A DNA stretch of 64,000 nucleotides. It comes from a phage. The stretch lies in sequence record OZ335964.1, one strand, 5' to 3'. This document shows positions 8,798-37,763 of the stretch, piece by piece. Under the pieces are notes generated by a model. That model ran no database searches and was not told where the DNA came from. It saw only the letters and a program-made list of their open reading frames with translations. Each line of letters opens with the position of its first letter. Positions within the stretch are counted from its first letter, which is position 1. Both the position numbers and the translations under genes were made by a program.

Positions 8798-8826
8798 AGT
8801 ATAGGGGATCTCGCGATCCCCGTCAA
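8798..8826 (-). promoter_or_regulatory. sigma70-like early promoter with spacer stem-loop (TTGACG-N17-TATACT)
   Basis: minus strand; spacer is palindrome GGGGATC..GATCCCC; A-rich upstream tract. Confidence 0.5.
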
Positions 8827-8830
8827 GCAT

Positions 8831-9358
8831 TTATTTTAAATTTTTTCGAATGTATTCAGACCATTCTCTGCCAGTAAGTTCGGTCCCATTCTGGAAACTG
8901 AAATACTCATACGGCATCGAGTCAAGATAAAACAGGATCATACATCGCGCCATATAATACCAATCACGATTAAAGTAAACTACGTTATCACCAGTACCAT
9001 CAACCCCTTTATCATAACCATCGCGGGTACGGGCGACCCATTGAATAGTATCATTTTTCTCACGGATCGTAACAGGTTCCCAATATCCAGCACATCCAGC
9101 ATGACCACACGAACAAGTAAGGAAATATTGACCTTTTGCTTTGTTGTCATCCCATTCACGATGGATTGGTTCGATCTCGTGAAACAGTGCTAAGCAATCA
9201 TGATTATGCAACACTGGCTTACCATCAATCAATGCATGGAATGTATACAAACGACCAGTAGACAAATAGCTATCCTCACGCTCAACCAGTTCAATAGCAA
9301 TCTTTTTAGCTCGTTCTTTGTGTCGTTGTGCTTTACGCTTACGGTTTAATGATTTCAT
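8831..9358 (-). CDS. hypothetical protein
   Basis: ORF track 8831..9379 begins with TTG; ATG at 9358 with GAGGTGA RBS. Confidence 0.5.
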   Translation of the reverse strand: MKSLNRKRKAQRHKERAKKIAIELVEREDSYLSTGRLYTFHALIDGKPVLHNHDCLALFHEIEPIHREWDDNKAKGQYFLTCSCGHAGCAGYWEPVTIREKNDTIQWVARTRDGYDKGVDGTGDNVVYFNRDWYYMARCMILFYLDSMPYEYFSFQNGTELTGREWSEYIRKNLK

Positions 9359-9375
9359 ATTCACCTCACACATTA

Positions 9376-9918
9376 TCAAAGGTCGCGATATAGTACATTA
9401 TGAAAATGAGAACTTGCATTACCAATATTGTAGATAATAAATTCTTCATCCGGCGCTTGCGCTACAAATTGAGTATGAGCAACCGCCACAACCTTAAAAA
9501 TACGATCCGTGATCTTGTGTTTAATTTCGGCTCCTACTTCCATAGGAACATATTCATGTGTTTCTGTTTCAGTCGCAAAACAGCCATCTTCTTCATAAGC
9601 ACGAACAAATCGATCGCAATCAGTACGCTTAACAAATTCAAGAGTATACAATTCTCGTGAATTGTCGGTATAGACCAATACAGAATTATTATGATAGCGA
9701 ATCACATACAGGTTATTATCATCGTCAATTACGCAAAAGCTACGGATTCCTTCGCCTATACTCCAGCAGATATTAACCACCGTTCCTCTAATAAAAAAAC
9801 TTTCCTTTAAATTAAAACTAGTCAATGTGCTAGCGTGCATTTTAACAACAACACCATCGCCAATTTCCAGTTTACGAAGTTTAACTTCTTTGCTCAGTAC
9901 ACAAAACATCATCATCAT
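9376..9918 (-). CDS. hypothetical protein
   Basis: 180 aa; ATG run (MMMM) with GAGAGGA RBS; promoter-stem-loop element upstream. Confidence 0.5.
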   Translation of the reverse strand: MMMMFCVLSKEVKLRKLEIGDGVVVKMHASTLTSFNLKESFFIRGTVVNICWSIGEGIRSFCVIDDDNNLYVIRYHNNSVLVYTDNSRELYTLEFVKRTDCDRFVRAYEEDGCFATETETHEYVPMEVGAEIKHKITDRIFKVVAVAHTQFVAQAPDEEFIIYNIGNASSHFHNVLYRDL

Positions 9919-9937
9919 GTTGTCCTCTCGTTGTTTT

Positions 9938-9965
9938 CGATGTGAGCATTATACATTAGCTAATC
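9938..9965 (-). promoter_or_regulatory. sigma70-like early promoter (TTGACA-N16-TATAAT)
   Basis: minus strand, directly after nrdD terminator, upstream of gene 9376..9918. Confidence 0.55.
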
Positions 9966-9971
9966 ATGTTG

Positions 9972-10003
9972 TCAACACCCCAAAACGAAAAAGCCGACCC
10001 TTT
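9972..10003 (-). terminator. intrinsic terminator after nrdD
   Basis: GC hairpin with GAAA loop and U-run on minus strand. Confidence 0.6.
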
Positions 10004-10018
10004 CGGATCGGCTAAAAA

Positions 10019-11881
10019 TTACATGTGCTTAACGCGGTTTACCATCTCGGAGTGTTTCCCGTGGTTAAATGGACGCAGATCAACAGATCCAAGATATCCA
10101 CTAACGCGCCGGATAACATTCATCTTTTCCAGATTGTCATTGCCGCAATCAGGACAAACAAAACCAGACTCGGTCGCTCTCATTTCCTTAGTAGATCCGC
10201 ATACATGACATACATCAGAAGGAGTATTAACACCGAAGTAATGCAATTTATCCATTGCATAGTCTACTACAGTTTCAAGACCTTTCAGGTTGTTTTTCAT
10301 GTCTGGGAACTCAACATAAGAGATCATGCCACCGGACGCCAGCCAGTGATAATCTTTCTCAAAGTCGATTTTCTCAAACGGTGTGACTTTCCGGTCTACG
10401 TCAAGATGGAATGAGTTGGTGTACCAGTCTTTATCGGTAGCACCCTTAACAATACCAAATTGCTCTCGATCCAGTCGATTAAATCGATAGCAAAGGCTCT
10501 CGGCTGGCGTACCGTAAAGACTAAACCCAAGTCCGGTTTCGTCCTTCCATTTTTCAGTATAATGACGCAAGATCTTAAGAATATGTTTACCGTATCGCTG
10601 CGCATCTTCCGAATCAAACGGATGAACACCAAACAGGACGCTCAATACCTCATGTAAACCAATATATCCAAGAGAGATACTAGCGCGACCATCTTTCAAC
10701 ACTTCCAAAATTTCATCGTTTTGATGAATACGGAAAAATGCACCTTCTGTATACAGCACAGGAGCAACATTGGCTTTAGCCCCTTTTAAAGCGTCTACGC
10801 GACTCATCAGCGCATCAAAGCAAATAGGCATACGATTAGCTAGCTCTTGTTCGAATAGCTCAATTCTGCGCATTACAGACGCTTTACCAGCACGACGCGC
10901 GGCAATAAGAGCAATACGCGGAAGATTCAGAGTCACAACACCTAAGTTATTACGTCCGTCTAATACTTCTTCGCCTTTCTCATTATGCCACACACCCAGG
11001 AAGCTACGACAACCCATCGGGCTAACCGGAACACTAGATCCAGTGATACTACGGTTATTCTTCGCAGAGATATAATCAGGGTAAAGACGCTTACTAGAAC
11101 ATTCCAATGCAAGTTGCTTAATGTCGTAGTTCGGATCTTCCGGTTTAAGGTTTAATCCTTCTTCTAAGAACATCACCAGCTTAGGAAACACCGGAGTGAT
11201 ACCATCTTTACCTAAACCTTTAGTTCGAACGTTCAGGATCGCTTTCTGAATCAGTTTTTCTTCCCAGCTAGTACCCATACCAAAGGTTAAAGTCACAAAA
11301 GGCGTTTGACCGTTGGTAGAGAACAAAGTGTTGATCTCATATTCCAACGCCTGATATCCGTCTAACGTTTCTTTTTCTGTCTTCTCTTGTGCATAGAGAG
11401 TATCAGCTTTGATTCCGTAGGTTTCGGCATCAGCAAGGTGTTTATGATATGTTTTCTCAACATACGGTGCTAACACCTGATCGATGTTTGCAATTGTGGT
11501 CCCGCCATATTGATGACTTGCCACCTGTGCGATAATTTGAGCGGTTACAGCACAAGCAACGCCGATTGATTTCGGACTTTCGATTTGTGCACTACCCAAT
11601 TTAAAACCATTCTCTAACATGTCTTTGAGATTAACAAGACAGCAGTTAGTAAACGGCATAGCGGGTGCATAATCCATATCATGATAATGAATATCACCGT
11701 CTACATGCGCTTTATAGATGTGCTCAGGTAACACGGTTTTAGCAATCTGTTTAGACACAGCACCAGCAATCAGATCTCGACGTGTCGGGAATGTTCGCGC
11801 GTCTTTGTTCGCGTTCTCTTTGCTTACTTCGTTTTCTTTACCCGTTGCGATCTCTGTAATGTCTTTGATTAGTTTTTCCAT
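10019..11881 (-). CDS. nrdD: anaerobic ribonucleoside-triphosphate reductase NrdD (glycyl radical enzyme)
   Basis: 620 aa; C-terminal RVSGYLG glycyl radical motif and CPDCG zinc site. Confidence 0.9.
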   Translation of the reverse strand: MEKLIKDITEIATGKENEVSKENANKDARTFPTRRDLIAGAVSKQIAKTVLPEHIYKAHVDGDIHYHDMDYAPAMPFTNCCLVNLKDMLENGFKLGSAQIESPKSIGVACAVTAQIIAQVASHQYGGTTIANIDQVLAPYVEKTYHKHLADAETYGIKADTLYAQEKTEKETLDGYQALEYEINTLFSTNGQTPFVTLTFGMGTSWEEKLIQKAILNVRTKGLGKDGITPVFPKLVMFLEEGLNLKPEDPNYDIKQLALECSSKRLYPDYISAKNNRSITGSSVPVSPMGCRSFLGVWHNEKGEEVLDGRNNLGVVTLNLPRIALIAARRAGKASVMRRIELFEQELANRMPICFDALMSRVDALKGAKANVAPVLYTEGAFFRIHQNDEILEVLKDGRASISLGYIGLHEVLSVLFGVHPFDSEDAQRYGKHILKILRHYTEKWKDETGLGFSLYGTPAESLCYRFNRLDREQFGIVKGATDKDWYTNSFHLDVDRKVTPFEKIDFEKDYHWLASGGMISYVEFPDMKNNLKGLETVVDYAMDKLHYFGVNTPSDVCHVCGSTKEMRATESGFVCPDCGNDNLEKMNVIRRVSGYLGSVDLRPFNHGKHSEMVNRVKHM

Positions 11882-11925: not shown

Positions 11926-12420
11926 TTATTTTACCAGTTCTGCTAATTCTTTTTCCGCCGCTTCCAGTTCAGCTTTCAGTTGTTTGATCTCTTGTCGCTT
12001 CTTATTAGCGGCTTCCTGCTTACTATTTCGGATAACCTGATCTAGATACAACTCCCAATCCTGAATATTTTTGATAATGTAGCCGTCAACGTTCAGAGCT
12101 TTAATATTAAGAACTTCTTCCAGCTTACTTAAAGAACGTTGTGTTTCTGGGAAGAAATAGTCATATTCACCTCGGTCAAACCAGTAGCTTATGCCAGCTT
12201 TATCTAAACGACGATGCAATTCATAAAAATCTCTACCATCTTCGACGATGAGTTTGTCTACATCGCCATTACAGTTAACAGAGACTTTGAATCTAATATT
12301 ATCAACCCCACCAAAAACATCAATAAGGATAGTTCCGATCGTGTTATCCGCGCTTCCAGTATCCATAAAAGATTCTAGTTTTTCTTGATTAGTAACGTAC
12401 CAAACATCTTGTTTCCACAT
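11926..12420 (-). CDS. hypothetical protein with C-terminal coiled coil (distant paralog-family member)
   Basis: 164 aa; beta-rich N-terminal part, KQLKAELEAAEKELAELVK tail. Confidence 0.5.
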   Translation of the reverse strand: MWKQDVWYVTNQEKLESFMDTGSADNTIGTILIDVFGGVDNIRFKVSVNCNGDVDKLIVEDGRDFYELHRRLDKAGISYWFDRGEYDYFFPETQRSLSKLEEVLNIKALNVDGYIIKNIQDWELYLDQVIRNSKQEAANKKRQEIKQLKAELEAAEKELAELVK

Positions 12421-12450
12421 AATATAATCCTCTCGTTGTTAAGTGGGAGT

Positions 12451-12478
12451 ATTATAGCATACTCCCTTCGCATGTCAA
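12451..12478 (-). promoter_or_regulatory. sigma70-like early promoter with stem-loop (TTGACA-N16-TATAAT)
   Basis: minus strand; hairpin GGGAGTAT..ATACTCCC overlaps spacer and -10. Confidence 0.55.
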
Positions 12479-13653
12479 GCACTAACTTTTTTCTTTACTG
12501 CTTTCACCTTCTGGCGAATTGCTCGAATCTCTTCGATCTCTTTTTCAGTCTCTTTAACAATTTCTTTGCGATTCTGAATATCTGTATCGAGATTATCATC
12601 AAGTTTAGGCAGCATGTCAATCAAGAACTTTTTAAAGTCTTTCAGGTTTCTGATAACAGCACCTTCACCCATTACCGCCACCCCTACACCATCCGGCAGA
12701 TCGCCAAACAGTTTAACCAGTTCAGACAGATGATCATGATCTTCTAGTGCTTCTTCCGGTTCAGATGGCAGTTCAACAAAGTTATAACGTTCATCATTGC
12801 TGATGATGTGATACCAGCAAAGCCCGAATGATTTCGGTGTATATTCTACACCATCAATTTCAACCGAGTCAACACTTCCATAATCATCTACTTTAGTTAC
12901 CTTAAATCCTTGTCCCAGCTTTTGAACAATTTCAACAACATGACTTGATACAGTTTCAGCGGTAAACCAATATGGCAAATTATGCTGATTTGGCTTGTAG
13001 CGTTCACCTACTTTAAATCTCTGACCAGCCGCTTGCATAGCATGAAATTGTTGTTTCGTGATTTCCGCGAAGTATTCAAATTCGCTACCATCAAACAAGC
13101 AATTCCATTGATCACAAAAACGATCCGCCTTGACGGTTTCACCTTTCGCGGTGATCACGGTAGCTGATCCGTGCAATTCTTCTTCAACTAAAAAGCCATA
13201 TTCGACAAAATCGACAAGTTTCATGGCTTCTTTGTGCTCTGGATCATTCTCTCCCCAGAATCGCTTAAATTCTTGCAAACCTTCCGGGGTAAACGAATAA
13301 CATTTACCTTTTTCAAAGTAAGTCGGCATTGCATCCTCTTTCTTGTTCATAGCTTCGTATGCCTCTTTTGAGATACGTTTAAAGTATTTGCGCTCATTGT
13401 GCATAATCATAGTAGCCCAATAATAAACGATATCCTCAGCGGAATAAACTACATCTCCAGCTTCAATAGTAATAACATGACCGTGGTCATCTTTTTCTAA
13501 TACTTTAAAGCCCTTTTCTACGATTTCAGCAACCCGAATATGACCACGGCGCGAAGCATCGGTCAGAATAATTGAATAGCGAGAAAAGTCTAGAAACTCA
13601 TCTTTACCGCCTTCACGGAATGCATAGTAATGACCTTCAAAGAATTTAGCCAT
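12475..13653 (-). CDS. paralog-family protein, multi-domain (ERKYFKRI and DERYNF repeats)
   Basis: 392 aa; repeated FKV..VD..G.V..IE.DG..Y units. Confidence 0.6.
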   Translation of the reverse strand: MAKFFEGHYYAFREGGKDEFLDFSRYSIILTDASRRGHIRVAEIVEKGFKVLEKDDHGHVITIEAGDVVYSAEDIVYYWATMIMHNERKYFKRISKEAYEAMNKKEDAMPTYFEKGKCYSFTPEGLQEFKRFWGENDPEHKEAMKLVDFVEYGFLVEEELHGSATVITAKGETVKADRFCDQWNCLFDGSEFEYFAEITKQQFHAMQAAGQRFKVGERYKPNQHNLPYWFTAETVSSHVVEIVQKLGQGFKVTKVDDYGSVDSVEIDGVEYTPKSFGLCWYHIISNDERYNFVELPSEPEEALEDHDHLSELVKLFGDLPDGVGVAVMGEGAVIRNLKDFKKFLIDMLPKLDDNLDTDIQNRKEIVKETEKEIEEIRAIRQKVKAVKKKVSA

Positions 13654-13684
13654 AATATAATCCTCTCGTTGTTTAGACGGGAGT

Positions 13685-13713
13685 ATCTTACTACTCCCGT
13701 TTCATCATGTCAA
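13685..13713 (-). promoter_or_regulatory. sigma70-like early promoter with stem-loop (TTGACA-N17-TAAGAT)
   Basis: minus strand; hairpin ACGGGAGTA..TACTCCCGT. Confidence 0.45.
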
Positions 13714-14276
13714 GCGTTAAATGACTTTTGGATCTCTTTCAGTTCAGCTACTTTATCGGCGCTGAATTTAGCGTAGGTATCATGTCGAATAATTTCACTT
13801 TCAAGAAAGGTTTCCAGCCGAGATCTATTTTCAATAAGGAACTCTTTCAGGTCTTCCGCGTTCTTGATAAAGATTTTATTGTCGGTAATGTCATCTTCAA
13901 TCGCAAAGGAGATAGAGCGAACTTTACCAAACAAGTTAATCAGATCTTCCAGAGATTCTTCTTTCTTAACTGGTTTCATTTCTTCAAACTGCTTTTTAGT
14001 GATGCGTTTAAAGTATTTGCGCTCGTTTGCAGCAATCAGAACAGATGCACCTTCATACTCATGAGTTTCTACCAGATACACACGACCCATCGCATCAACA
14101 GTGAGAACTTTAAAGCCGTTACAAAGCACGTCATACAAGAACTTATTATGTTGCGGACATCGTTTGATAAATTCCTCTGCGGACTCAGCATTACGGAAAG
14201 TGTAATAACGACCTCGTTCAAAAACAGCATCAGTTGAAGACTTAGCCGGATACAATTTATACGTTTTCTGTACCAT
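13710..14276 (-). CDS. paralog-family protein (ANERKYFKRI domain)
   Basis: ORF track 13710..14294; ATG at 14276 with GAGGATTATATT leader. Confidence 0.55.
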   Translation of the reverse strand: MVQKTYKLYPAKSSTDAVFERGRYYTFRNAESAEEFIKRCPQHNKFLYDVLCNGFKVLTVDAMGRVYLVETHEYEGASVLIAANERKYFKRITKKQFEEMKPVKKEESLEDLINLFGKVRSISFAIEDDITDNKIFIKNAEDLKEFLIENRSRLETFLESEIIRHDTYAKFSADKVAELKEIQKSFNA

Positions 14277-14290: not shown

Positions 14291-14563
14291 TCATTTCACT
14301 AATTGAACAGCACGAAACAGAATGCGGTCACACGGAAGAAGCATAAATTCCCAACGCGGATCAAAGTCTTTAGCGGTATATGTTTTCCCATCAACCGAGA
14401 TTTCACTTACATAACCAATAGGTGACACTTTAAGAATAGTAAATCCATTCTTGATGACTTCGTAGGTATCTTTCAATCCTTCGTAGTCATCCTCTAGGAA
14501 GTCTTTACGTGCTTGCTCAGATTTAAAAACATAGGCCACACCGGATTTAAACATCTTACGCAT
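14291..14563 (-). CDS. paralog-family protein (single domain)
   Basis: 90 aa; FTILKVSPIGYVSEISVDGKTY; AGAAGGAGAATCAACA RBS. Confidence 0.5.
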   Translation of the reverse strand: MRKMFKSGVAYVFKSEQARKDFLEDDYEGLKDTYEVIKNGFTILKVSPIGYVSEISVDGKTYTAKDFDPRWEFMLLPCDRILFRAVQLVK

Positions 14564-14594
14564 TGTTGATTCTCCTTCTTGATTAGATGGGAGT

Positions 14595-14623
14595 ATTTTA
14601 CTACTCCCATTTCATGCTGTCAA
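14595..14623 (-). promoter_or_regulatory. sigma70-like early promoter with stem-loop (TTGACA-N17-TAAAAT)
   Basis: minus strand; hairpin ATGGGAGTA..TACTCCCAT; overlaps gp49 stop. Confidence 0.45.
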
Positions 14624-14626
14624 CTA

Positions 14627-15100
14627 CTATCTTAATCTTTGTATAAATTGTTTCTTATACTTCTTCGTGATCTCTTCTCTTGTATCCGCGTCACAATAAT
14701 CGAAACCTTCTGCGTCCATAATAGCAACCATCTCCGCGCGTGTCAAGCGTGAAAATCGTTTTACTTTATCAACAGCATATTGAGGATGTAAATGATTGTT
14801 GGTGTAGTCTCCTTTGATGTAATTAACATAGTTTGTAGCCCAAACAACGAAATCAGCACCTAAAGCACCAACACCAAACCGTTTAAAGTCTCCGGTCAAC
14901 GATCCTTCTAGGCGGTTGCAACACGAATGAAGCAATCCCCTTACGCGGCCTTGCCCTTTCCCATCTAGATCGTGGTCGTGGTCAAGATGGTTTTTGCTCA
15001 TATCCTCAAAAAGTGGCAATTGACAAAGGGGGCAAATGCCCCCCTGTTTTTCGAATAGTTCTTGTTTGTACTCTTTAGCACTCTTAGCAGTCAGTAACAT
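14627..15100 (-). CDS. 49: endonuclease VII (Holliday junction resolvase) gp49
   Basis: MLLTAK...CPLCQ...HLDHDHDLDG...GRVRGLLHSCCN matches remembered T4 EndoVII; ATG at 15100 after GGAGGG. Confidence 0.9.
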   Translation of the reverse strand: MLLTAKSAKEYKQELFEKQGGICPLCQLPLFEDMSKNHLDHDHDLDGKGQGRVRGLLHSCCNRLEGSLTGDFKRFGVGALGADFVVWATNYVNYIKGDYTNNHLHPQYAVDKVKRFSRLTRAEMVAIMDAEGFDYCDADTREEITKKYKKQFIQRLR

Positions 15101-17476: not shown

Positions 17477-17785
17477 TTATTTCACGTTAACGCCGTCATC
17501 AATCCAGCCGACGCTATTTGGTTTAACAGTTTTACCATAGGATGCATACTTAATCAAGCATGGTTTAACATCGTTATCAAATCTTCCTAAACGTACTCCA
17601 AAATCAGGAATATCCATGTATGCGGCTTTATATCCCCATGTGCCATATTCAGAATCAATCTCAACCGGACGGCCTTTAAAAGCATACACTACACCGTGAC
17701 GGTCAACGATAACATAGCAATAGCCAGCCGGAAGATACACAGTTTCGCCGTAAACTTTAACTGGAGTAGCAGAAGAGATAAACAT
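17477..17785 (-). CDS. hypothetical protein
   Basis: 102 aa; GAGGATTATATT leader; promoter-stem-loop upstream. Confidence 0.5.
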   Translation of the reverse strand: MFISSATPVKVYGETVYLPAGYCYVIVDRHGVVYAFKGRPVEIDSEYGTWGYKAAYMDIPDFGVRLGRFDNDVKPCLIKYASYGKTVKPNSVGWIDDGVNVK

Positions 17786-17819
17786 AATATAATCCTCACA
17801 TCGTTCATTTGATGCGGTT

Positions 17820-17848
17820 ATTATAGGATAACCGCATTTTCATGTCAA
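17820..17848 (-). promoter_or_regulatory. sigma70-like early promoter with stem-loop (TTGACA-N17-TATAAT)
   Basis: minus strand; hairpin GCGGTTAT..ATAACCGC in spacer. Confidence 0.55.
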
Positions 17849-17854
17849 CAGTTT

Positions 17855-18163
17855 TTAAAAATCTTCTTCCGGTTTATATCGACCGTCATCGACTGGTTTT
17901 GGACTGAATCCTGTATGTGTGCGCGGTTTAACTTCCGGTTTGCCAGCAATCATCAAACCAAAACATTTCAATCCTTTATAGCACATAACAATATTAACCA
18001 CTGTCCACGTTATAGGCCATACGATTGCAGCAATACAAAATGCTCCTGTATCGACCTCTTTGGTGTCCTTGTCGAATCTGGCGTACAAGCAGAATACTAG
18101 ATACGAGATCATTGCACCTGTAGGCCAGATATAAAGCACATTAACAATATCTTGTGTTGTCAC
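17855..18163 (-). CDS. small membrane protein
   Basis: ORF track 17855..18229; GTG start at 18163 preceded by GGAGGATAAC right after upstream stop; hydrophobic helices. Confidence 0.5.
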   Translation of the reverse strand: MTTQDIVNVLYIWPTGAMISYLVFCLYARFDKDTKEVDTGAFCIAAIVWPITWTVVNIVMCYKGLKCFGLMIAGKPEVKPRTHTGFSPKPVDDGRYKPEEDF

Positions 18164-18173: not shown

Positions 18174-18452
18174 TTACATGTCTTGCAGTGCATAAAAGCA
18201 TTTTTCTTCGTAGTCATAGAAAATGTCAAAGTATGCTTTTTCTACATACTCGCCATTGATCCAAGCGGCAGTAACAATCAGAGTGGTCCAGTTAGATCCG
18301 CTCTCAACGGTAAAGGTTTTAATACCCAGCTTCGCTGCTAAGTCGAACGCAAACCGGACGCAACCACGGCAGGAAGTGATATTGGAAGTTTTGATTTTAA
18401 AGCCACCGCGAGTTTTAGAAATTTCTACTTTAGCGAAAGACAGGTTGCTCAT
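18174..18452 (-). CDS. hypothetical protein
   Basis: 92 aa; AAGGAGAATCAAA leader; promoter-stem-loop upstream. Confidence 0.5.
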   Translation of the reverse strand: MSNLSFAKVEISKTRGGFKIKTSNITSCRGCVRFAFDLAAKLGIKTFTVESGSNWTTLIVTAAWINGEYVEKAYFDIFYDYEEKCFYALQDM

Positions 18453-18494
18453 TTTGATTCTCCTTAAGAAAGTGTGTTTCGTTTTGATGTGTGT

Positions 18495-18523
18495 AGTATA
18501 GGGGATCGGTGATCCCCTGTCAA
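18495..18523 (-). promoter_or_regulatory. sigma70-like early promoter with stem-loop (TTGACA-N17-TATACT)
   Basis: minus strand; spacer is palindrome GGGGATCACCGATCCCC; conserved leader ...AAAACGAAACACAC...AAGGAGAATCAAA. Confidence 0.55.
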
Positions 18524-18532
18524 CAACTTTTT

Positions 18533-18862
18533 TTATGAGTTTAGTGAATTAACTACTACATCAAAATGATGTACAGAGTACACCTTATTAAACACATACT
18601 CATCGTGTTTAGGAATAGCCCCTAATCGCTCTATTTCGCTCGCTAACACGATAAACCGTTTATCCGGTGCATTTACCTTATATGCTTCAACAACGCACGG
18701 GAAACGCGTTTCAGAGAGTTCTGGATAGTTTTCTGAATCCATCAGGACAATGAATACCCTGTTACATTGATTGTAGAATCCTGTTTTTGATTTCATCAAG
18801 TTTTCTTCTCTGTACAATTCGTGCAATCTTCCTTTCATGATTTCGTTGGTTCTTGTCTTCAC
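18533..18862 (-). CDS. hypothetical protein (start uncertain; candidates 18838, 18796, 18742)
   Basis: ORF track coordinates; overlaps upstream gene, no unambiguous RBS. Confidence 0.35.
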   Translation of the reverse strand: MKTRTNEIMKGRLHELYREENLMKSKTGFYNQCNRVFIVLMDSENYPELSETRFPCVVEAYKVNAPDKRFIVLASEIERLGAIPKHDEYVFNKVYSVHHFDVVVNSLNS

Positions 18863-20251: not shown

Positions 20252-20542
20252 TCAAACGGTAGTTTTGCGAAGATGGTCATTACATGCTTTTAATGCATCA
20301 GTCGCGGTGTCATAGCGAGTATTATCATAGCACCAGTAACCATCGGTCAACTGATAAATCAATCCATCCCTTTTAGCTTCGATGAAAGATAACTCTTTGA
20401 AAGTTTCTACTTTCTTTGCTGATACTCCACGGTCACGGCGCTTATAGAGTTTAGCTAAAATGCGTTCAGCTTGTTCCTCTTTATCACCAGACAGATCCCA
20501 AATAATGTTGCGGATATGTTTGATTAATTGTTCAGTGGTCAT
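20252..20542 (-). CDS. hypothetical protein
   Basis: 96 aa; AAGGAGAATCAAAG leader; promoter-stem-loop upstream. Confidence 0.5.
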   Translation of the reverse strand: MTTEQLIKHIRNIIWDLSGDKEEQAERILAKLYKRRDRGVSAKKVETFKELSFIEAKRDGLIYQLTDGYWCYDNTRYDTATDALKACNDHLRKTTV

Positions 20543-20571
20543 CTTTGATTCTCCTTAGTTGGTATGTGTGC

Positions 20572-20599
20572 ATTATAGCACTATGACTTTCATTGTCAA
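20572..20599 (-). promoter_or_regulatory. sigma70-like early promoter (TTGACA-N16-TATAAT)
   Basis: minus strand; preceded by intrinsic terminator and A-tract. Confidence 0.55.
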
Positions 20600-20602
20600 C
20601 AA

Positions 20603-20638
20603 CTAAAAACAAAAAAGGCTACCCCTAAGGATAGCCCA
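20603..20638 (-). terminator. intrinsic terminator after gp38-like gene
   Basis: GGCUAUCC..GGGUAGCC hairpin + U6 on minus strand. Confidence 0.65.
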
Positions 20639-20643
20639 TAAAA

Positions 20644-21444
20644 TTACACGCGAGCACCGTAGATCGTGCCTACTTTATCCCAGCGAGGGGCATTGCCAGT
20701 AACAGCCTTACCAGCTGCACCAGCACCACTGGCATTATAGTTTGATGTACGAACGGCAGCACCACCAGCCGCACCAACGTTACCACCAGCACCACTCATG
20801 TTATTACCATCAACGGTTACTTTACCACCTGCGGCGGTTAACGATGCATTACCACCATTACCACGACCACCACGACCACCTGTACCGAAAGGACGACCAC
20901 CACCGCCGCCTGCAACGCCAGCTAATGTGAAGTTATAGTCTATGGACCATCCGCCGCCGCCACCGCCACCGCCAGCAATTGCACCATTATTCGTAATACG
21001 TAAGCGTGTACCGATGCCATTATTGATCGCTGTACCCCCGGCGGTCGCACGAACTAAAGCATCTCCAGATCCACCACTAGACCCAGATCCGTTACCGCCA
21101 CGACCATATACAGTGACGCCGGAATTAATGATAAGAGTTACATATTCATTAGTTAATGAGCTAGGGAAATCCAGACACGGAACACCAGCAGAATTAGAAA
21201 CAAGATCCCCGGTAATAGTAACTACTACCGGAGTAGACCCCTGTGATTTTAGATAGTTAATCAGAGTATCTTTATTGTAGTTGTGGTTTGCACCAATGCT
21301 ATAATGAATCTCTTTAGAGCGTCCGACCATCGCCGACATATACGCCGGACGACCTAAGCGAACAGCTTGCATTGCGGCGCTCATCCACCGTTGACCAGTC
21401 TCAGCAACAGCCGATGATCCTACCCAACCTGCTTTAATTGCCAT
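20644..21444 (-). CDS. 38: gp38-like receptor-recognising adhesin with glycine-rich motifs (T2-type)
   Basis: 266 aa; N-terminus MAIKAGWVGSSAVAETGQRWMS resembles remembered T2-type gp38; C-terminal half has poly-Gly tracts (GGGGGGGG, GGGGGRPFGTGGRGG); GAGGAAACC RBS. Confidence 0.65.
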   Translation of the reverse strand: MAIKAGWVGSSAVAETGQRWMSAAMQAVRLGRPAYMSAMVGRSKEIHYSIGANHNYNKDTLINYLKSQGSTPVVVTITGDLVSNSAGVPCLDFPSSLTNEYVTLIINSGVTVYGRGGNGSGSSGGSGDALVRATAGGTAINNGIGTRLRITNNGAIAGGGGGGGGWSIDYNFTLAGVAGGGGGRPFGTGGRGGRGNGGNASLTAAGGKVTVDGNNMSGAGGNVGAAGGAAVRTSNYNASGAGAAGKAVTGNAPRWDKVGTIYGARV

Positions 21445-21457
21445 AAGGTTTCCTCAC

Positions 21458-21720: not shown

Positions 21721-21761
21721 TTTTGATTCTCCTAGAAAGTGTATCTCGTTTCGATGGGTGT

Positions 21762-23078: not shown

Positions 23079-25217
23079 TTAAGGATTTCGGCCAGGGTAA
23101 TGCTTAAATCGACCGTAACCAGTTTCAATGCTCATATCTCGTTGACGCACAATCGCCCAATAACCGTTGCAGGAATCTTGAAGATATAGATCCTTACCTT
23201 TTAGGAACTCATTAAAAATAGTGATCTGCCAATCATAATAGACCGCATCAGCAAGACTACCCATCCAACCGTGCGGATCTTCCATCAGTTCGACAAGTTC
23301 ATCAATTACCCAATATGGACAAGGGCTAAATTTACCCTTACTAAAATCGCTGAACATAGTAACGATCTTGACTTCCGGTCGAGGCTGATCGGGAATATCT
23401 GGACGTTTGTTAACTACGACTTGCACATATTTTGTGTAGCCTACAATTTCACCTTCATCTAAGTTAGTGTTATTGTTTTTGTCGGCAAATGCAACAAATT
23501 TGTAAACACCAGAATCATTTAATGTTGCATTAGCTTTACGATATACCGGAACACTGGAATCTGCAATAGGTAATTTAATACCACTTTTACTAAATTCATA
23601 GGTCGGCACATAGTTAGATGGCGGTTTAATCATGGTTGCTTCCAGCACCAACGGATCACCCTCAGTAATTTGCACCGGATGCGGACCGTCAAATTCCATA
23701 TTAGGAATTACTTCAACTTTATAGGTTGCACGTCCTGCAATATCATATCCGGTATGCGCACTATGAGGATCTCGGCTAGGACTATCGCGATATTCATGCG
23801 ACCAGATACCATTATGTTCTTTATCCGCCGCATCAGTGATCTTATATTCTTTCGTTTCAATCGGCAATTCTGTTACAAGAACATCGTTTTTCAAAATTGC
23901 TAACGAACGAGTTTGAGTCGGATCATTACTTGCTGGAGGTTCTGGATCAACAATTTTAATAACAATAGGTTCCCCAACCTCAATACCGCTATAATCATGC
24001 TCGACGTCATAGATATCTAACATACGGCGATCATAAAATAACGGGCGAGAAGTTGGAGTTCTCTGCGGATCATCATCACGCGCAGGAGCTACCAACAATT
24101 GCAGGGCTACACTATTATCATATTGCAATTTCTCAAGACTAATACGGTCATAACCAGGATCACCATATTTCTTGCTTTGTAATTGCGTACCACCTAACAT
24201 CCACGTAAAGTAGACATTATTTGTTAATAAACCATAATGTCGGTTCCATGAATTATCAACAGGGGAAACTGGCATATCAATACTAACAGAAGACCCAGAA
24301 GGATAACGAAATTCAATAGCAGAAAAATCTCGGCTAAAAAATTCGTTTTCCTTGACGTTAACGCGGAATCGATGGCGCTGACCTTCCAGATACGATTCAC
24401 TACTACCAGGACCATTTTCAACCTTATAGGAACGAATACAAGCGACATAATCACCTGCATCTGCTTCGGTAGCATGTTTCGTCACATATAAAGTTTTATT
24501 CTTTGATTCATAAACCAAAGTACCATCGCCACGTTCCAGACGATAACGAACTATGGTATGTTCAGCGTCATTTGGGGCATCGTCTTCTACAGTATAATAG
24601 GCAGGTGCATATTTTTGTACATTGAATACAGCTAAATTTTCTCGAATTGTTGCTGTAAACGGATATACAAATTTAACATCACCTGTTTCGTCGCTTAATT
24701 CCATTCGATAAAGACCGGAAAATTCAGGCCATGCGAATTTTGCAATTTTAAATTCACGATGGTCCAATCCCAAATCACCATCTACGGAATCAACTAGACC
24801 ATTATTATAATACAAGTCAACAGAGATATTAGCAGGAATATTACTACGAAAAACAATTTTCGCTTTAAGTTCATCACCAATATTAAATGATGTCGGAGGA
24901 TATACATGTTCAACATATGGATTATCAAATAACTTAAATGTAAAGTTTTCCGTGCCAATATCGATAGAATCACCACTAAATGATGTGTCGCCTAGCGCAT
25001 AACCTCGAACGTTTACAGACCATCCGGTAACATCGTCTTCTTTAACGGAATCCAATGTAAATGTCGGAGAGGCACTTGTTGCTATAATCTGGTCATTTTT
25101 CTTCCAGACATAACCTTTTTTCGGTTTTGTTGAATCAGGGCTTTCATCAACAATACAGCAGCTAAAATCGTGCGGCATCCAAATCATATTATTGACCGTG
25201 GTGTTTACTACTGCCAT
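23079..25217 (-). CDS. large protein with Ig-like domain signatures (possible virion decoration or adhesin)
   Basis: 712 aa; DxGxYxC-type Ig motifs (EADAGDYVACI, LNDSGVYKFVAF); strong AGGAGGATTC RBS; own terminator. Confidence 0.55.
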   Translation of the reverse strand: MAVVNTTVNNMIWMPHDFSCCIVDESPDSTKPKKGYVWKKNDQIIATSASPTFTLDSVKEDDVTGWSVNVRGYALGDTSFSGDSIDIGTENFTFKLFDNPYVEHVYPPTSFNIGDELKAKIVFRSNIPANISVDLYYNNGLVDSVDGDLGLDHREFKIAKFAWPEFSGLYRMELSDETGDVKFVYPFTATIRENLAVFNVQKYAPAYYTVEDDAPNDAEHTIVRYRLERGDGTLVYESKNKTLYVTKHATEADAGDYVACIRSYKVENGPGSSESYLEGQRHRFRVNVKENEFFSRDFSAIEFRYPSGSSVSIDMPVSPVDNSWNRHYGLLTNNVYFTWMLGGTQLQSKKYGDPGYDRISLEKLQYDNSVALQLLVAPARDDDPQRTPTSRPLFYDRRMLDIYDVEHDYSGIEVGEPIVIKIVDPEPPASNDPTQTRSLAILKNDVLVTELPIETKEYKITDAADKEHNGIWSHEYRDSPSRDPHSAHTGYDIAGRATYKVEVIPNMEFDGPHPVQITEGDPLVLEATMIKPPSNYVPTYEFSKSGIKLPIADSSVPVYRKANATLNDSGVYKFVAFADKNNNTNLDEGEIVGYTKYVQVVVNKRPDIPDQPRPEVKIVTMFSDFSKGKFSPCPYWVIDELVELMEDPHGWMGSLADAVYYDWQITIFNEFLKGKDLYLQDSCNGYWAIVRQRDMSIETGYGRFKHYPGRNP

Positions 25218-29203: not shown

Positions 29204-29542
29204 TTATTCTCCTTTCTTAAACAAATTGCGAAGCCAGTATACAAACGGGATTTCTTTAAACTTGAACTTGTCAATAGTTAATTCTTTAGTAGCAAGATGA
29301 ATACCATAAGCATCATGTGTCACGATATGCCATTTTCTATAGCCCAAATGTGAACAACCGTCTGAATCTAGGTTAATAAGAGTTTCTCGCTCACTAGGAT
29401 TATTTTTCCACAATTTTGTAACCGGGTCGCACATAATTCGACCTAGCGTACCATGAATAATCTCACAACGGTAAAGTTTTCCAGCAGTGAGATAGGCGCA
29501 CCCGTCATAGTCGGTATAAACAAACACTTCTTTAACACTCAT
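29204..29542 (-). CDS. small paralog (C.HL.G..W family), double-domain member
   Basis: ATG at 29542; DYDGCAYLTAGKLY and DSDGCSHLGYRKWHIV. Confidence 0.5.
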   Translation of the reverse strand: MSVKEVFVYTDYDGCAYLTAGKLYRCEIIHGTLGRIMCDPVTKLWKNNPSERETLINLDSDGCSHLGYRKWHIVTHDAYGIHLATKELTIDKFKFKEIPFVYWLRNLFKKGE

Positions 29543-29573
29543 TTTAATACTCCTTTGTTGTTTCGATGGGGGT

Positions 29574-29602
29574 ATATTACTACCCCCGATCATGTGTGTC
29601 AA
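29574..29602 (-). promoter_or_regulatory. sigma70-like early promoter with stem-loop (TTGACA-N17-TAATAT)
   Basis: minus strand; hairpin GGGGGTA..TACCCCC. Confidence 0.45.
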
Positions 29603-29848
29603 CTACTTTTTCAAGAATTTTTTAATTGCGTTCCAAAGACCTTTATTCTCAGGTTGTTTTGGTTCTTCGATCAGCGTCCATGTTCGACCGTCTAAGTGTG
29701 CACAATTTTTAAGGCAAATAAAAATCTGGTGTCCCTTATCATCACGGATATAACCACTATTCGCAAATCTTTCATGTGGTGTATATTCATACAGTGTATT
29801 TGGTGTAATATACTTGCGGTTACTATAAGGTGTCATCACATACATCAT
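29603..29848 (-). CDS. small paralog (C.HL.G..W family)
   Basis: ATG at 29848 (ATGA overlap), GGGAG RBS; CAHLDGRTWTLI. Confidence 0.5.
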   Translation of the reverse strand: MMYVMTPYSNRKYITPNTLYEYTPHERFANSGYIRDDKGHQIFICLKNCAHLDGRTWTLIEEPKQPENKGLWNAIKKFLKK

Positions 29849-30801: not shown

Positions 30802-30835
30802 TAAAACGAAAAAGCCAACCCTTTTCGGATTGGCT
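30802..30835 (-). terminator. intrinsic terminator after GrcA-like gene
   Basis: AGCCAAUCC..GGGUUGGCU hairpin + U-run on minus strand. Confidence 0.65.
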
Positions 30836-30845
30836 TGATGAAAAA

Positions 30846-34362: not shown

Positions 34363-34689
34363 TTAGAAAGAAACAGTTTTCAAGAAATCCAGATTTTTAG
34401 TACCGAAAACAGAAAAGTAGTGTTTTCCTTTTTCGGTTTTAGAGAAAGCGATTGTCTTCTCTACATGGTGACGGAAGCCAGACAGACGATCACCCAGGTC
34501 AAGGCGGCAAGCGTAAGTAGTGCCGTTTTCGAAAGTAACCTCGATTTGAGTTTTGTCATATTCGCTTTCATAGGCTTTTGCTGCCGCGTCCTGTGCTTTA
34601 CGCTCGAAGTCTTCGAAGTGGAATACTTCGTTTGCGTTAGCGAATACAGAAGATTCAGAGAAGATAACTTTAACAGATACTGGTTTCAT
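34363..34689 (-). CDS. hypothetical protein
   Basis: 108 aa; promoter-stem-loop upstream. Confidence 0.5.
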   Translation of the reverse strand: MKPVSVKVIFSESSVFANANEVFHFEDFERKAQDAAAKAYESEYDKTQIEVTFENGTTYACRLDLGDRLSGFRHHVEKTIAFSKTEKGKHYFSVFGTKNLDFLKTVSF

Positions 34690-34731
34690 TTTGATACTCC
34701 TTAGTAGTTCGTGTTTCGTTTCGATGGGTGT

Positions 34732-34760
34732 ATTATGCTATACACCCTCTCGCGTGTCAA
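34732..34760 (-). promoter_or_regulatory. sigma70-like early promoter with stem-loop (TTGACA-N17-CATAAT)
   Basis: minus strand; hairpin GGGTGTAT..ATACACCC; leader CATCGAAACGAAACACG. Confidence 0.5.
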
Positions 34761-34768
34761 CAACTTTT

Positions 34769-34957
34769 TTAGTCTTTTTTCATAATTTCTAGAGCAGTTT
34801 CTACAGCACCTTTCCAACCTTCCCACATAATGGACATAGTAAGGAAGTTAAAGCACCCGCAGGAATCAACCTTTTTAGAGATAAACCATTCTACAAACGC
34901 TTCGCTCATACCATGCTCTTTAGCGGATTCGCGTAATTGTTCAATTTGGTCTTCCAT
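34769..34957 (-). CDS. hypothetical protein
   Basis: 62 aa; GAGGTGATACT leader. Confidence 0.45.
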   Translation of the reverse strand: MEDQIEQLRESAKEHGMSEAFVEWFISKKVDSCGCFNFLTMSIMWEGWKGAVETALEIMKKD

Positions 34958-35183: not shown

Positions 35184-35411
35184 TTATAGTTGATCAGCAA
35201 TGTATGCGGTGCATTTGCGGAGTTTAGCCATAGCACCACCTTTCATGTCGCTTGCGCCTACAATGTTCATGATCTCTAAGCGATCAGCCGGATTCAGTCT
35301 AGTAGCCCAGATCTGGTTAGCCAGTTCCATTTTACCCATCTGCGGTTCCATCTCAAACATTTCACGCTCAAAGTCGATAATTTCTTTTGCTGCGTCTTTA
35401 AAGTTAATCAT
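35184..35411 (-). CDS. hypothetical protein
   Basis: 75 aa; GGGAGGACCAAA leader; promoter-stem-loop upstream. Confidence 0.5.
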   Translation of the reverse strand: MINFKDAAKEIIDFEREMFEMEPQMGKMELANQIWATRLNPADRLEIMNIVGASDMKGGAMAKLRKCTAYIADQL

Positions 35412-35440
35412 TTTGGTCCTCCCGTTTCGTTGATGGTTGT

Positions 35441-35469
35441 ATTGTAGGGGAGTTATCCTCCCCTGTCAA
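35441..35469 (-). promoter_or_regulatory. sigma70-like early promoter with stem-loop (TTGACA-N17-TACAAT)
   Basis: minus strand; hairpin AGGGGAG..CTCCCCT in spacer. Confidence 0.5.
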
Positions 35470-35477
35470 CACTTTTA

Positions 35478-35663
35478 TCAGAAATATGCAATATAGTTTG
35501 CCAGTCCTACAGAGTCATCATTCGGCATTGCTTTTACCGCCAGTTCAAACCCTGCTTCAACTTTCTGTTTAGCGGATTCTTCGTTATAACCCCAGATGAC
35601 CAGAATAGCTACTACGTTTTCTTTGCTTACTGCTTTCAGTGCTTTAGTGATGCGACGTGCCAT
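35478..35663 (-). CDS. hypothetical protein
   Basis: 61 aa; GGAGAATCAAATT leader; promoter-stem-loop upstream. Confidence 0.45.
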   Translation of the reverse strand: MARRITKALKAVSKENVVAILVIWGYNEESAKQKVEAGFELAVKAMPNDDSVGLANYIAYF

Positions 35664-35709
35664 AATTTGATTCTCCGTTTAAGAAAGTGTGTTTCGTTTC
35701 GATGGGTGT

Positions 35710-35738
35710 ATTATGCTATAGGCGTGATCTGGTGTCAA
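35710..35738 (-). promoter_or_regulatory. sigma70-like early promoter (TTGACA-N17-CATAAT)
   Basis: minus strand; leader CATCGAAACGAAACACAC; directly after terminator 35765..35793. Confidence 0.5.
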
Positions 35739-35764
35739 CAACTTTTTTAAAAAATTTTAGGCAA

Positions 35765-35793
35765 TAAAAAAGCCACTCCGAAGAGTGGCTTAT
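35765..35793 (-). terminator. intrinsic terminator
   Basis: AGCCACUC-UUCG-GAGUGGCU hairpin + U6 on minus strand. Confidence 0.65.
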
Positions 35794-37052: not shown

Positions 37053-37061
37053 ATTATCACC

Positions 37062-37220
37062 TTATTTGCTAATCGCTAAACCCAATCCGAAGAGAGCACC
37101 CGATGCTACAGTATACCCGAAAGTTTCAAATGCAGTAAAGATATCTAAGCCACCAGCTAACAGAGTTGCAGTAAACAGAGTACCAGCTACGAACATAAAA
37201 GTTTTACCGATAAATTTCAT
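37062..37220 (-). CDS. small hydrophobic membrane protein (not in ORF track)
   Basis: 52 aa MKFIGKTFMFVAGTLFTATLLAGG...; GGAGAATCAAAATG leader; promoter-stem-loop upstream. Confidence 0.4.
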   Translation of the reverse strand: MKFIGKTFMFVAGTLFTATLLAGGLDIFTAFETFGYTVASGALFGLGLAISK

Positions 37221-37251
37221 TTTGATTCTCCTTTCGTTTGTTTGTGGGGGT

Positions 37252-37280
37252 ATCTTACTACCCCCGTTTCATGTTGTCAA
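37252..37280 (-). promoter_or_regulatory. sigma70-like early promoter with stem-loop (TTGACA-N17-TAAGAT)
   Basis: minus strand; hairpin GGGGGTA..TACCCCC. Confidence 0.45.
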
Positions 37281-37286
37281 CTGTTT

Positions 37287-37661
37287 TTAAGAAAATTTTA
37301 CTTCGTCTACAATGTCTTTCATGACATTGATTTCCATTCCGGTCAGAACACGTTGGAACATGTGCTGCACATACGCTTTCAGATATTCATTTGATGGCTT
37401 GCTATCAAAAGTCTTTTTAGTATAGTAGTCATCACCGAAAGCTACTGTAATTACATTTTCGTCGTCGTTCCAAGCGATATAAGCAAATTTGCCGTTATCC
37501 CAGAAGCGAGCACTAATTGCTACTTTTGTTGAATCGAATCCTACTTCGCTGTGAGATTCAAGAACTACTTGCGTGCCAGTTTCTTTATGAATGTAGTAGC
37601 GGGATACTAAGTCAAAGTTACGAGTGTAGTGACATTCGAATTTATCTTTAAACATCATCAT
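37287..37661 (-). CDS. hypothetical protein
   Basis: ORF track 37287..37730 overlaps promoter; ATG run at 37661 after GGAGAATCAAAA leader. Confidence 0.5.
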   Translation of the reverse strand: MMMFKDKFECHYTRNFDLVSRYYIHKETGTQVVLESHSEVGFDSTKVAISARFWDNGKFAYIAWNDDENVITVAFGDDYYTKKTFDSKPSNEYLKAYVQHMFQRVLTGMEINVMKDIVDEVKFS

Positions 37662-37698
37662 TTTTGATTCTCCTAGTGTGTTTCGTTTCGATATGTGC

Positions 37699-37728
37699 AT
37701 TATGATATAGTCGTTTATGGTTGTCAAC
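37699..37728 (-). promoter_or_regulatory. sigma70-like early promoter (TTGACA-N18-CATAAT)
   Basis: minus strand; directly after terminator of the Acb1-like gene. Confidence 0.45.
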
Positions 37729-37734
37729 ACCTAA

Positions 37735-37763
37735 AAACAAAAAACCCCGAAAAATTTTCGGGG
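37735..37763 (-). terminator. intrinsic terminator after Acb1-like gene
   Basis: CCCCGAAAAUUUUCGGGG hairpin + U-run on minus strand. Confidence 0.6.

Follow-up and report, generated by a model that had tools for sequence, protein, structure and literature searches.

The early region of the phage in sequence record OZ335964.1 carries many copies of a short element in which a promoter and a hairpin precede a small gene, and it raises two questions: what these elements are, and whether the genes that they frame were recently acquired. The window considered here is a stretch of 64,000 nucleotides from that record, read on one strand and numbered from its first letter. An initial annotation, made from the letters alone, had described at least 16 minus-strand copies between 8798 and 37763, likened them to the promoter-early stem-loops (PeSLs) of T4-type phages and proposed that the open reading frames (ORFs) between them are the most likely recently acquired cargo of the genome. 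We find that the elements correspond to PeSLs already published, that their stems are under selection as RNA structure, and that both the positions of the elements and the genes framed by them are stable across the genus.

A family of 17 promoter–hairpin cassettes

A search for TTGACA-N15-19-NATANT gave 15 matches in the window compared with 1.6 expected (none of 100 shuffles reached 15), of which 14 were on the minus strand at 13 distinct sites, and when the flanks of all the matches were printed they formed a family whose similarity extends well beyond the two hexamers. The leader CGAAACGAAACAC, described in the initial annotation as conserved, was found exactly in three copies only; allowing up to two mismatches it gave six matches against 1.7 expected. 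It is therefore a sub-family consensus and not universal, and as it was too narrow to serve as a family marker it was rejected and replaced by an nhmmer profile seeded with the 11 clearest copies and iterated until convergence. What does hold generally is an A/C-rich leader with a Shine–Dalgarno (SD) sequence and an ATG. At convergence the profile matched the window 17 times and no more: sixteen copies are on the minus strand, with envelopes within 8745-37772, and the remaining copy is on the plus strand at 52037-52141. The E-values were 1e-19 to 1.6e-4 in the first pass and all ≤2.5e-10 after iteration, and the repeated cassettes are real. The minimum of 16 minus-strand copies thus becomes a count of exactly 16, and the span originally given is that of the family on this strand, 8798 being where the −10 of the lowest copy ends and 37763 belonging to the terminator of the highest; the plus-strand copy lies outside it. 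A search of the whole window against Rfam 15 at the gathering threshold gave no matches.

The −35 hexamer is TTGACA in 16 of the 17 copies and TTGACG in the other, and the spacer is 17 nt long in 13 copies and 16 nt in four. The −10 hexamers (TATAAT and CATAAT, five each; TATACT and TAAGAT, two each; TAATAT, TAAAAT and TACAAT, one each) agree with the TATAAT consensus at four to six of the six positions in all copies, and in an independent promoter scan every one of the 16 minus-strand copies scored at least 10 out of 12. An A/T tract such as AAAAAAGTTG or TTTTTAGGTG lies immediately 5′ of the promoter in all copies, often with the stop codon of the upstream gene within or adjoining it. Downstream of the −10 there follow a C-rich discriminator of 5–6 nt, CATC at the predicted start (12/17) and then the A/C-rich leader; a second type of leader, GAGGATTATATT, occurs in three copies. 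An SD sequence is present in all 17 copies (GGAG in 13), and an ATG 29–46 nt 3′ of the −10 in every case opens an ORF of 50–392 aa. Sixteen copies are situated in the early minus-strand region, which is rich in hypothetical ORFs according to the annotation of phi1, RB49 and JK32, and one in the plus-strand structural region.

One strong G/C-rich hairpin was found in 16 of the 17 copies, a single hairpin per cassette wherever it is placed, and from its placement the copies could be divided into three classes (copies are identified here by the position of the −35). Class A (n = 6: 37727, 35738, 23032, 20599, 9975 and, on the plus strand, 52078) has a hairpin and T-run ending 14–32 nt 5′ of the −35. 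All six are canonical terminators, with a G/C hairpin followed directly by a U-run, and were recovered independently by a terminator scan, so that the observation of copies lying right after intrinsic terminators applies to five on the minus strand and to the plus-strand copy. In class B (n = 3: 35469, 18523 and 8826) the hairpin occupies the spacer between −35 and −10. In class C (n = 7: 37280, 34760, 29602, 17848, 14623, 13713 and 12478) a stem of 7–10 bp straddles the −10, which lies in a 6-nt loop, the right arm reaching to about −1. Only the copy at 21790 lacks a convincing hairpin, its class C stem being weak. In classes B and C the stem is followed by the −10 hexamer or AUCGAAAC and not by a U-run, and these hairpins were filed as PeSL-type and not as canonical terminators. 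The 17 cassettes, numbered from the highest minus-strand coordinate downwards, are listed below with the shuffle z-scores of some of the stems, together with one isolated terminator.

PeSL 1, 37659..37772, minus strand, class A: terminator hairpin 37764-37744 and T-run; −35 37727-37722; −10 CATAAT 37704-37699; ATG 37661; its gene is a 124-aa ORF at the position of phi1 ORF125
PeSL 2, 37218..37300, minus strand, class C: −35 37280; hairpin GGGGGTAGTAAGATACCCCC across the −10 TAAGAT 37257-37252; ATG 37220; z −4.3
PeSL 3, 35661..35793, minus strand, class A: terminator 35791-35770; long A/T tract; −35 35738; −10 CATAAT 35715-35710; ATG 35663; its gene is a 61-aa ORF117 homologue (35478..35663, minus strand) framed by PeSL 3 and PeSL 4
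PeSL 4, 35409..35516, minus strand, class B: −35 35469; spacer hairpin GGGGAGGATAACTCCCC; −10 TACAAT 35446-35441; ATG 35411; z −3.9
PeSL 5, 34687..34795, minus strand, class C: −35 34760; hairpin GGGTGTATAGCATAATACACCC around the −10 CATAAT 34737-34732; ATG 34689; z −6.6
PeSL 6, 29540..29624, minus strand, class C: −35 29602; hairpin GGGGGTAGTAATATACCCCC; −10 TAATAT 29579-29574; ATG 29542
PeSL 7, 22972..23083, minus strand, class A: terminator 23072-23047 with one G·U pair; −35 23032; −10 CATAAT 23009-23004; ATG 22974
PeSL 8, 21718..21819, minus strand: −35 21790; −10 CATAAT 21767-21762; ATG 21720; weak stem GGTGT...ACACC straddling the −10; z −1.8
PeSL 9, 20540..20641, minus strand, class A: terminator 20637-20616 after g38; −35 20599; −10 TATAAT 20577-20572; ATG 20542
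PeSL 10, 18450..18556, minus strand, class B: −35 18523; spacer hairpin GGGGATCACCGATCCCC; −10 TATACT 18500-18495; ATG 18452
PeSL 11, 17783..17885, minus strand, class C: −35 17848; hairpin ATGCGGTTATCCTATAATAACCGCAT around the −10 TATAAT 17825-17820; leader of the GAGGATTATATT type; ATG 17785
PeSL 12, 14561..14643, minus strand, class C: −35 14623; hairpin ATGGGAGTAGTAAAATACTCCCAT; −10 TAAAAT 14600-14595; ATG 14563
PeSL 13, 13651..13742, minus strand, class C: −35 13713; hairpin ACGGGAGTAGTAAGATACTCCCGT; −10 TAAGAT 13690-13685; ATG 13653 (frd.2)
PeSL 14, 12418..12519, minus strand, class C: −35 12478-12473; hairpin GGGAGTATGCTATAATACTCCC; −10 TATAAT 12456-12451; ATG 12420
PeSL 15, 9916..10019, minus strand, class A: terminator 10013-9992 after nrdD; −35 9975; −10 TATAAT 9953-9948; ATG 9918
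PeSL 16, 8753..8852, minus strand, class B: −35 TTGACG 8826; spacer hairpin GGGGATCGCGAGATCCCC; −10 TATACT 8803-8798; ATG 8755
PeSL 17, 52037..52138, plus strand, class A: terminator after a 331-aa ORF of the structural region; −35 52078; −10 TATAAT 52101-52106; ATG 52136; its genes are small ORFs and a 279-aa ORF
Stand-alone terminator, 30812..30836, minus strand: hairpin of the class A family (AAGCCAATCCGAAAAGGGTTGGCTT+TTTCGTTTTA, GCCAATCCGAAAAGGGTTGGC+TTTTTCGTTTTA) with no promoter behind it

The stand-alone terminator is in effect a 'half-PeSL' and could be a degraded or half copy. At PeSL 14 the TGA stop codon of the upstream gene, frd.2, lies inside the −35 TTGACA (12473-12478), so that the promoter overlaps the end of the coding sequence.

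The elements are the PeSLs of RB49 and phi1

PeSLs were defined in the coliphages RB49 and phi1 (Arbiol et al. 2010, Genome Biol Evol 2:140; PMC2839356), which carry about 52 copies per genome. As described there, each consists of a sigma-70 core, an AT-rich upstream region and a G(n)-loop-C(n) stem-loop, for which five positions are possible, among them one in the space between the boxes and one that overlaps the −10, with an SD sequence and ATG at the 3′ end; they are found mainly in hyperplastic regions 5′ of small ORFs of unknown function, with few in the core modules (PMC2839356). The consensus TTGACA-N17-TATAAT was restated later (PMC4122927).

The window is 95–97% identical to, and collinear with, Krischvirus genomes (JK32, JSE, RB49, phi1 and about 70 others), and by its sequence the phage is an RB49/phi1-like member of this genus; its identity to the Shigella phage JK32 is about 96%. 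When the corresponding 36–41 kb of six relatives (phi1, JK32, GEC-3S, RB49, G2248 and Brandy) were searched with the profile, each gave exactly 16 minus-strand matches at positions matching those in the window, and the depositors of GEC-3S had themselves marked promoters and terminators there. Over a 47-nt core phi1 PeSL206/205 and the window copy at 18523 are identical, and the phi1 stem-loop 5′ of ORF210 that was assayed as a terminator proved to be a class B hairpin, GGGGATCGGTGATCCCC, with TTATAAT after it. As the copies occupy the same positions in RB49 and phi1, and given the 47-nt identity, the window elements are orthologues and near-identical paralogues of published PeSLs. They have the sigma-70 core, the AT tract, the stem-loop (marginal at 21790), the SD sequence and ATG, the location and the homology of PeSLs. 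The original identification was thus right, and amounts to the rediscovery of a published element in its defining genus: in genus, in the 16 positions and in consensus nothing substantive separates the window from RB49 and phi1. The differences are a few point changes, wobble pairs in stems and a loop inversion at 18523, and among the flanking genes the window keeps a 712-aa ORF and lacks ORF074 and one of ORF110/111.

Promoter and terminator activity has been measured in lacZ fusions only for PeSL193/192, 206/205 and 211/210 of phi1/RB49 (PMC2839356). PeSL206/205 is a strong promoter (about 13,000 Miller units), and the stem-loop 5′ of phi1 ORF210 lowers downstream lacZ expression as strongly as rrnB T1 (PMC2839356). 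Given the near-identity of the window copies to these published paralogues, similar activities would be expected of them.

The stems are selected as RNA structure

Folding energy alone says little in this sequence, as 25% of random windows reach a minimum free energy of −13 kcal/mol or lower in a 44-nt test, and because of this strong background a perfect-stem score and shuffles of each hairpin were added. A perfect-stem score of 12 or more was reached by 12 of the 17 copies compared with 4.6% of 3000 random 125-nt windows, and the fold shuffle z-scores were between −3.7 and −6.6 for 10 of the 11 promoter-internal hairpins. Covariation was examined in 18 distinct class C variants, taken from the window paralogues and their orthologues, in an ungapped alignment anchored on the loop (a MAFFT alignment of the same set moved one register by a base and was not used). 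Pairing holds in all 126 cells of the seven base-pair positions of the stem, five of which occur as two or three Watson–Crick types, and sliding the 3′ arm by one or two columns as a control reduced pairing to 42–62%. The only non-Watson–Crick pairs among these variants are T·G on the sense strand. Similarly, polymorphisms between orthologues exchange Watson–Crick for G·U pairs or the reverse, again only on the sense strand (orthologue positions 7, 9, 11 and 12), and of 41 distinct variants 27 have the better fold in the sense RNA and six in the antisense. Stem covariation, wobbles confined to the sense strand and independence of position point to a hairpin that acts as RNA on the sense strand, and the stems are under selection as such. 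In all classes the hairpin lies 5′ of the start site of its own cassette, which means that only polymerases that have entered from the upstream unit can transcribe it.

At 18500-18518 the genomes differ by an inversion of the loop: GGGGATC-ACC-GATCCCC is found in the window and JK32, and GGGGATC-GGT-GATCCCC in RB49; the four other relatives have GGGGAT-CACGT-ATCCCC.

The framed genes are stable across the genus

The window from 5.7 to 46 kb was compared structurally with the six relatives by BLAST chaining. All PeSL positions and nearly all of the framed ORFs are conserved and collinear in the seven genomes, which span the genus, so the proposal that these ORFs were recently acquired in this genome is not supported at the scale of this comparison of flanking ORF content. 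About 10 structural differences from the relatives were found, of which one is bounded by a PeSL.

Three differences are insertions of HNH homing endonucleases: at window 15420 between nrdC and dam in GEC-3S, at 30781-30799 after nrdC.11 in JK32, and at 31961-31985 before the endolysin in JK32 and G2248. All three sites are 'empty' in the window. The 712-aa ORF at 23079-25217 (minus strand), which has only a sub-threshold match to Ig_3, is present in the window and in JK32, G2248 and Brandy, and has decayed to a non-coding stretch or a short ORF in RB49, phi1 and GEC-3S; it was considered as a PeSL-mediated insertion and this was rejected, as a remnant of the 3′ end survives in RB49 and phi1, indicating decay or deletion there. 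At 33976-34170 the window has a single 64-aa ORF where all six relatives have two of about 65 aa (ORF110/111; 197 compared with 396 bp, 33969-34167), possibly through unequal recombination between tandem paralogues, and at about 19185-19357 the ORF074 of RB49, phi1, GEC-3S and Brandy is missing from the window, JK32 and G2248. Neither of these two differences is at a PeSL. Between ORF130 and gene 2 the window carries a 380-aa ORF (40260-41402, minus strand) with matches to CapR, DUF4379 (a treble-clef zinc finger) and, weakly, T5orf172. It is absent from RB49, JK32, GEC-3S and Brandy, a different ORF of about 1 kb is found there in phi1 and G2248, and strong bidirectional terminator-like hairpins flank it at 40255-40235 and 41424-41444; it is probably a mobile gene of endonuclease type.

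The single difference with a breakpoint inside a PeSL concerns the adhesin gene g38:

g38 adhesin cassette, 20644..21480, minus strand: stand-alone terminator 21480-21465, then g38 at 21444-20644, between the PeSL 8 unit and PeSL 9

This cassette is absent from the site in G2248 (window 20566-21499), and where the window has the terminator-type PeSL 9, G2248 has a different PeSL with the spacer hairpin CGGGGAGAAATCCCCG. The gene is situated in the early region with no PeSL of its own, and its nucleotide matches to g38 of other T-even genera are at 68–81%. On this sequence comparison the cargo picture would fit only the g38 polymorphism and an older cross-family ORF, that at 35478-35663. If real, the role of PeSLs as linkers in recombination operates rarely.

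A gene shared with T1-like phages

Sensitive BLASTN of 34300-37800 found about 62 Krischvirus genomes and, in addition, 113 records of T1-like siphophages (Drexlerviridae). The Drexlerviridae matches, at 74–78% nucleotide identity, cover only window ~35474-35716 (minus strand), that is the 61-aa ORF and its promoter-proximal leader; for the gene at 35478-35663 the identity is 75–78%. The homology takes in the whole of the ORF at 35478-35663 and ends at its stop codon, where the next PeSL of the window begins; in PGN590 and SECphi27 it continues 5′ through GCATAATA.....CATCGAAACGA, which comprises the −10, the start and the first bases of the leader. The boundaries of homology are those of the cassette, as a model of PeSLs as linkers predicts. 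With TBLASTN the 61-aa protein found only Krischvirus (100% identical), T1-like phages (72–80%) and one weak match in an Acinetobacter phage. Judged from these alignments, the sharing of this ORF between Krischvirus and T1-like phages is genuine gene sharing. GC content was considered as a sign of foreign origin and discarded, since the 42.5% of the ORF is within the local distribution and is uninformative. In the rest of the early region the only cross-family nucleotide matches are to ordinary T4-type genes (g38, nrdD, tk, tk.4 and vs).

PGN590 (NC_049830.1) has at least 16 copies of a cassette of its own, for example at 8164+, 9039+, 9545+, 11596+, 6772-, 5104-, 3871- and 1224-. It consists of TAGCACTTTTTGTTAAA, exactly 20 nt, a −10 that is often extended, about 5 nt, a CATC(G/A)A(A/C)AAC leader of the CATCGAAAC type, an SD sequence and ATG, and eight of the 16 cassettes have a strong hairpin, which lies either over the −10 or in the spacer. 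The PeSL profile matches three of the cassettes with E-values of 2e-4 to 5e-3. The Drexlerviridae cassettes, as seen in PGN590, are like PeSLs in being present in at least 16 copies, in the start of the leader, in the SD sequence and ATG, in having hairpins in about half of the copies and in one shared cargo ORF; they differ in lacking a TTGACA −35, TAGCACTTTTTGTTAAA lying 20 nt 5′ of the −10, and in belonging to a siphovirus of about 50 kb. T1-like phages are unmentioned in both PeSL papers (PMC2839356, PMC4122927), and literal-sequence searches of the literature, the coverage of which is incomplete, found no description of the T1-like cassette or of this link. The idea that PeSL-type cassettes are not confined to T4-like phages, and that a shared −10, start and leader may link single early genes across families through the T1-like family TAGCACTTTTTGTTAAA-N20-(−10)-CATCGAAAC, is put forward tentatively and we regard it as rather doubtful: it is a lead, not a discovery.

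Comparison with other known systems

The PeSL and PmSL elements of T4/PST and KVP40/nt-1 (Comeau et al. 2014; PMC4122927) have the same composite terminator–promoter build in the hyperplastic regions of T4-like genomes, and are found near indels. They differ in their consensi (TTTACW...TAYWAT and TTGYVH...TAWWAT) and stem motifs (PMC4122927), and their stem-loops lie just 5′ of the promoter, whereas in the window the stem is often inside a near-perfect sigma-70 promoter. Lambdoid morons (Hendrix et al. 2000) and integron cassettes resemble PeSL units in being autonomous genes with a promoter and terminator of their own, as already compared in the PeSL study (PMC2839356). However, the regulatory sequences of morons are not repeated and are not proposed as a substrate for recombination, and integrons use a dedicated integrase and attC sites, whereas no recombinase is associated with the PeSLs here.

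There is also a likeness to the early promoters of T7. In T7 A2, TTGACAACATGAA and GTAAGATAC stand in the same register as in the window copies at 37280 and 13713, A2 reading TTGACAACATGAA...GTAAGATAC where the copy at 37280 has TTGACAACATGAAACGGGGGTAGTAAGATAC, and the starts of T7 A1 and A3 (cc|ATCGA and ATGAAACGA) resemble the PeSL start CATCGAAACGA. Set beside the copies at 37280, 13713, 14623 and 9975, T7 A2 (TTGACAACATGAAGTAACATGCAGTAAGATAC) resembles class C PeSLs in the −35-proximal part of the spacer and in the context of the −10. Unlike PeSLs, T7 A1, A2 and A3 are three tandem promoters at one end of the genome, without promoter-internal hairpins and not dispersed among small ORFs. 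The likeness suggests that the early promoters of coliphages follow common design rules or have been exchanged. As it is the promoters used by the host polymerase in T7 that share these extended features, it is probably in part a convergent optimization for Escherichia coli RNA polymerase.

Function of the PeSLs and alternative explanations

We consider it very probable that PeSLs are composite boundaries between early transcription units in RB49-type T4-like coliphages. The AT tract, the near-consensus TTGACA-N16/17-TATAAT-like core and the CATC start would together make a strong sigma-70 promoter, which host RNA polymerase would use immediately after infection, and the short A/C-rich leader with a strong SD sequence (usually GGAG) would drive translation of the first small ORF. 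On the sense RNA the hairpin would act as a terminator or attenuator of the upstream unit and probably also as a protector of its 3′ end, so that each unit is insulated. The class A form is canonical, with a hairpin and U-run, and the class C hairpin is bare; in class B, we suggest, the A/U-rich −10 directly after the stem may replace the U-tract. With about 100 bp of recurring similarity, the cassettes may occasionally serve as homologous linkers for deletion, insertion or exchange of the genes between them, and for the window the best explanation is that this is a rare side effect on an evolutionary timescale and not ongoing turnover.

Several points weigh against this interpretation. Start sites and termination at all 17 copies are predictions from sequence. 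Efficient termination at class C hairpins, which have no U-tract (AUCGAAAC comes next), is uncertain, so that these may or may not terminate. A recombination role of the window copies is weakly supported, as PeSL positions are fixed in the seven genomes and only the g38 difference is bounded by a PeSL. The exact matches between pairs of copies are also short (at most 32 bp and mostly 8–23 bp, the background being about 7 bp). Finally, the similarity to T7 A2 and A3 and to T1-like promoters means that the conservation could be partly convergence, and not descent or mobility.

The last three points would also be expected if the elements were ordinary strong early promoters and terminators without any cassette mobility, alike because there is one optimum for E. 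coli RNA polymerase and ribosomes. Most of the indels are indeed homing-endonuclease insertions or decay unrelated to PeSLs, and extended features recur in unrelated coliphages, both in T7 (TTGACAACATGAA...GTAAGATAC in A2 and the starts of A1 and A3) and in the CATCGAAACGA leaders of T1-like phages. This explanation nevertheless leaves out the mini-circle formation and the association of PeSLs with indels and replacements between relatives reported for RB49 and phi1 (PMC2839356), and it does not readily account for the 47-nt identity of paralogues from different regions of the genome, for a PeSL of another class placed precisely at the g38 deletion junction in G2248, or for an ORF117 cassette common to Drexlerviridae in which homology stops at the cassette boundaries. 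We give it appreciable weight, though we think it the less probable account.

The other alternatives concern the hairpin. It might not terminate at all and serve mainly as a stabilizer or processing signal of the 3′ end, the stem blocking 3′-to-5′ exonucleases and setting the half-life of the upstream early mRNA. The RNA-level, sense-strand signature would be the same, the class B and C hairpins have no canonical U-run, and RegB is encoded in the early region, with GGAG, which may be its target here, as the SD sequence of 13 of the 17 leaders (for the biology of RegB see PMC3014915). However, six copies are textbook intrinsic terminators, and the class B stem-loop 5′ of phi1 ORF210 matched rrnB T1 in reducing lacZ expression (PMC2839356). 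We think a mainly stabilizing role the less probable, though it has to be reckoned with. A role of the inverted repeats as DNA, as a cruciform or as the site where a phage protein (for instance endonuclease VII or a recombination factor) would repress the promoter or set off targeted recombination, has some attractions: gene 49, for endonuclease VII, is in the same region, Arbiol et al. speculated that GGGG...CCCC is the target of a DNA-binding protein (PMC2839356), the repeats of classes B and C extend over parts of the promoter core, and the inversion of ACC to GGT between the window and RB49 at 18523 is a palindrome-type DNA event. Against this, compensatory changes in the stems of different copies leave no fixed recognition sequence, the G·U pairs, which only the sense strand tolerates, would correspond to A·C mismatches in the other arm of a cruciform, and a hairpin that may lie upstream, in the spacer or over the −10 argues against a fixed role in promoter geometry. 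Because of the covariation and the strand-asymmetric wobbles a DNA-level role is disfavoured, and we judge it very improbable. A composite boundary acting through sense RNA is thus preferred.

To what was known of PeSLs the present analysis adds a catalogue of the 17 window copies, in which each cassette has one hairpin placed in one of three ways, and quantitative evidence, in the form of covariation and sense-only wobbles, that the stem is selected as RNA. It also carries a caution, namely that to be framed by PeSLs is not the same as to be recently acquired, since positions and cargo are stable across the genus. If the link to T1-like phages is true, the idea of modular linkers would extend across phage families that co-infect E. 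coli.

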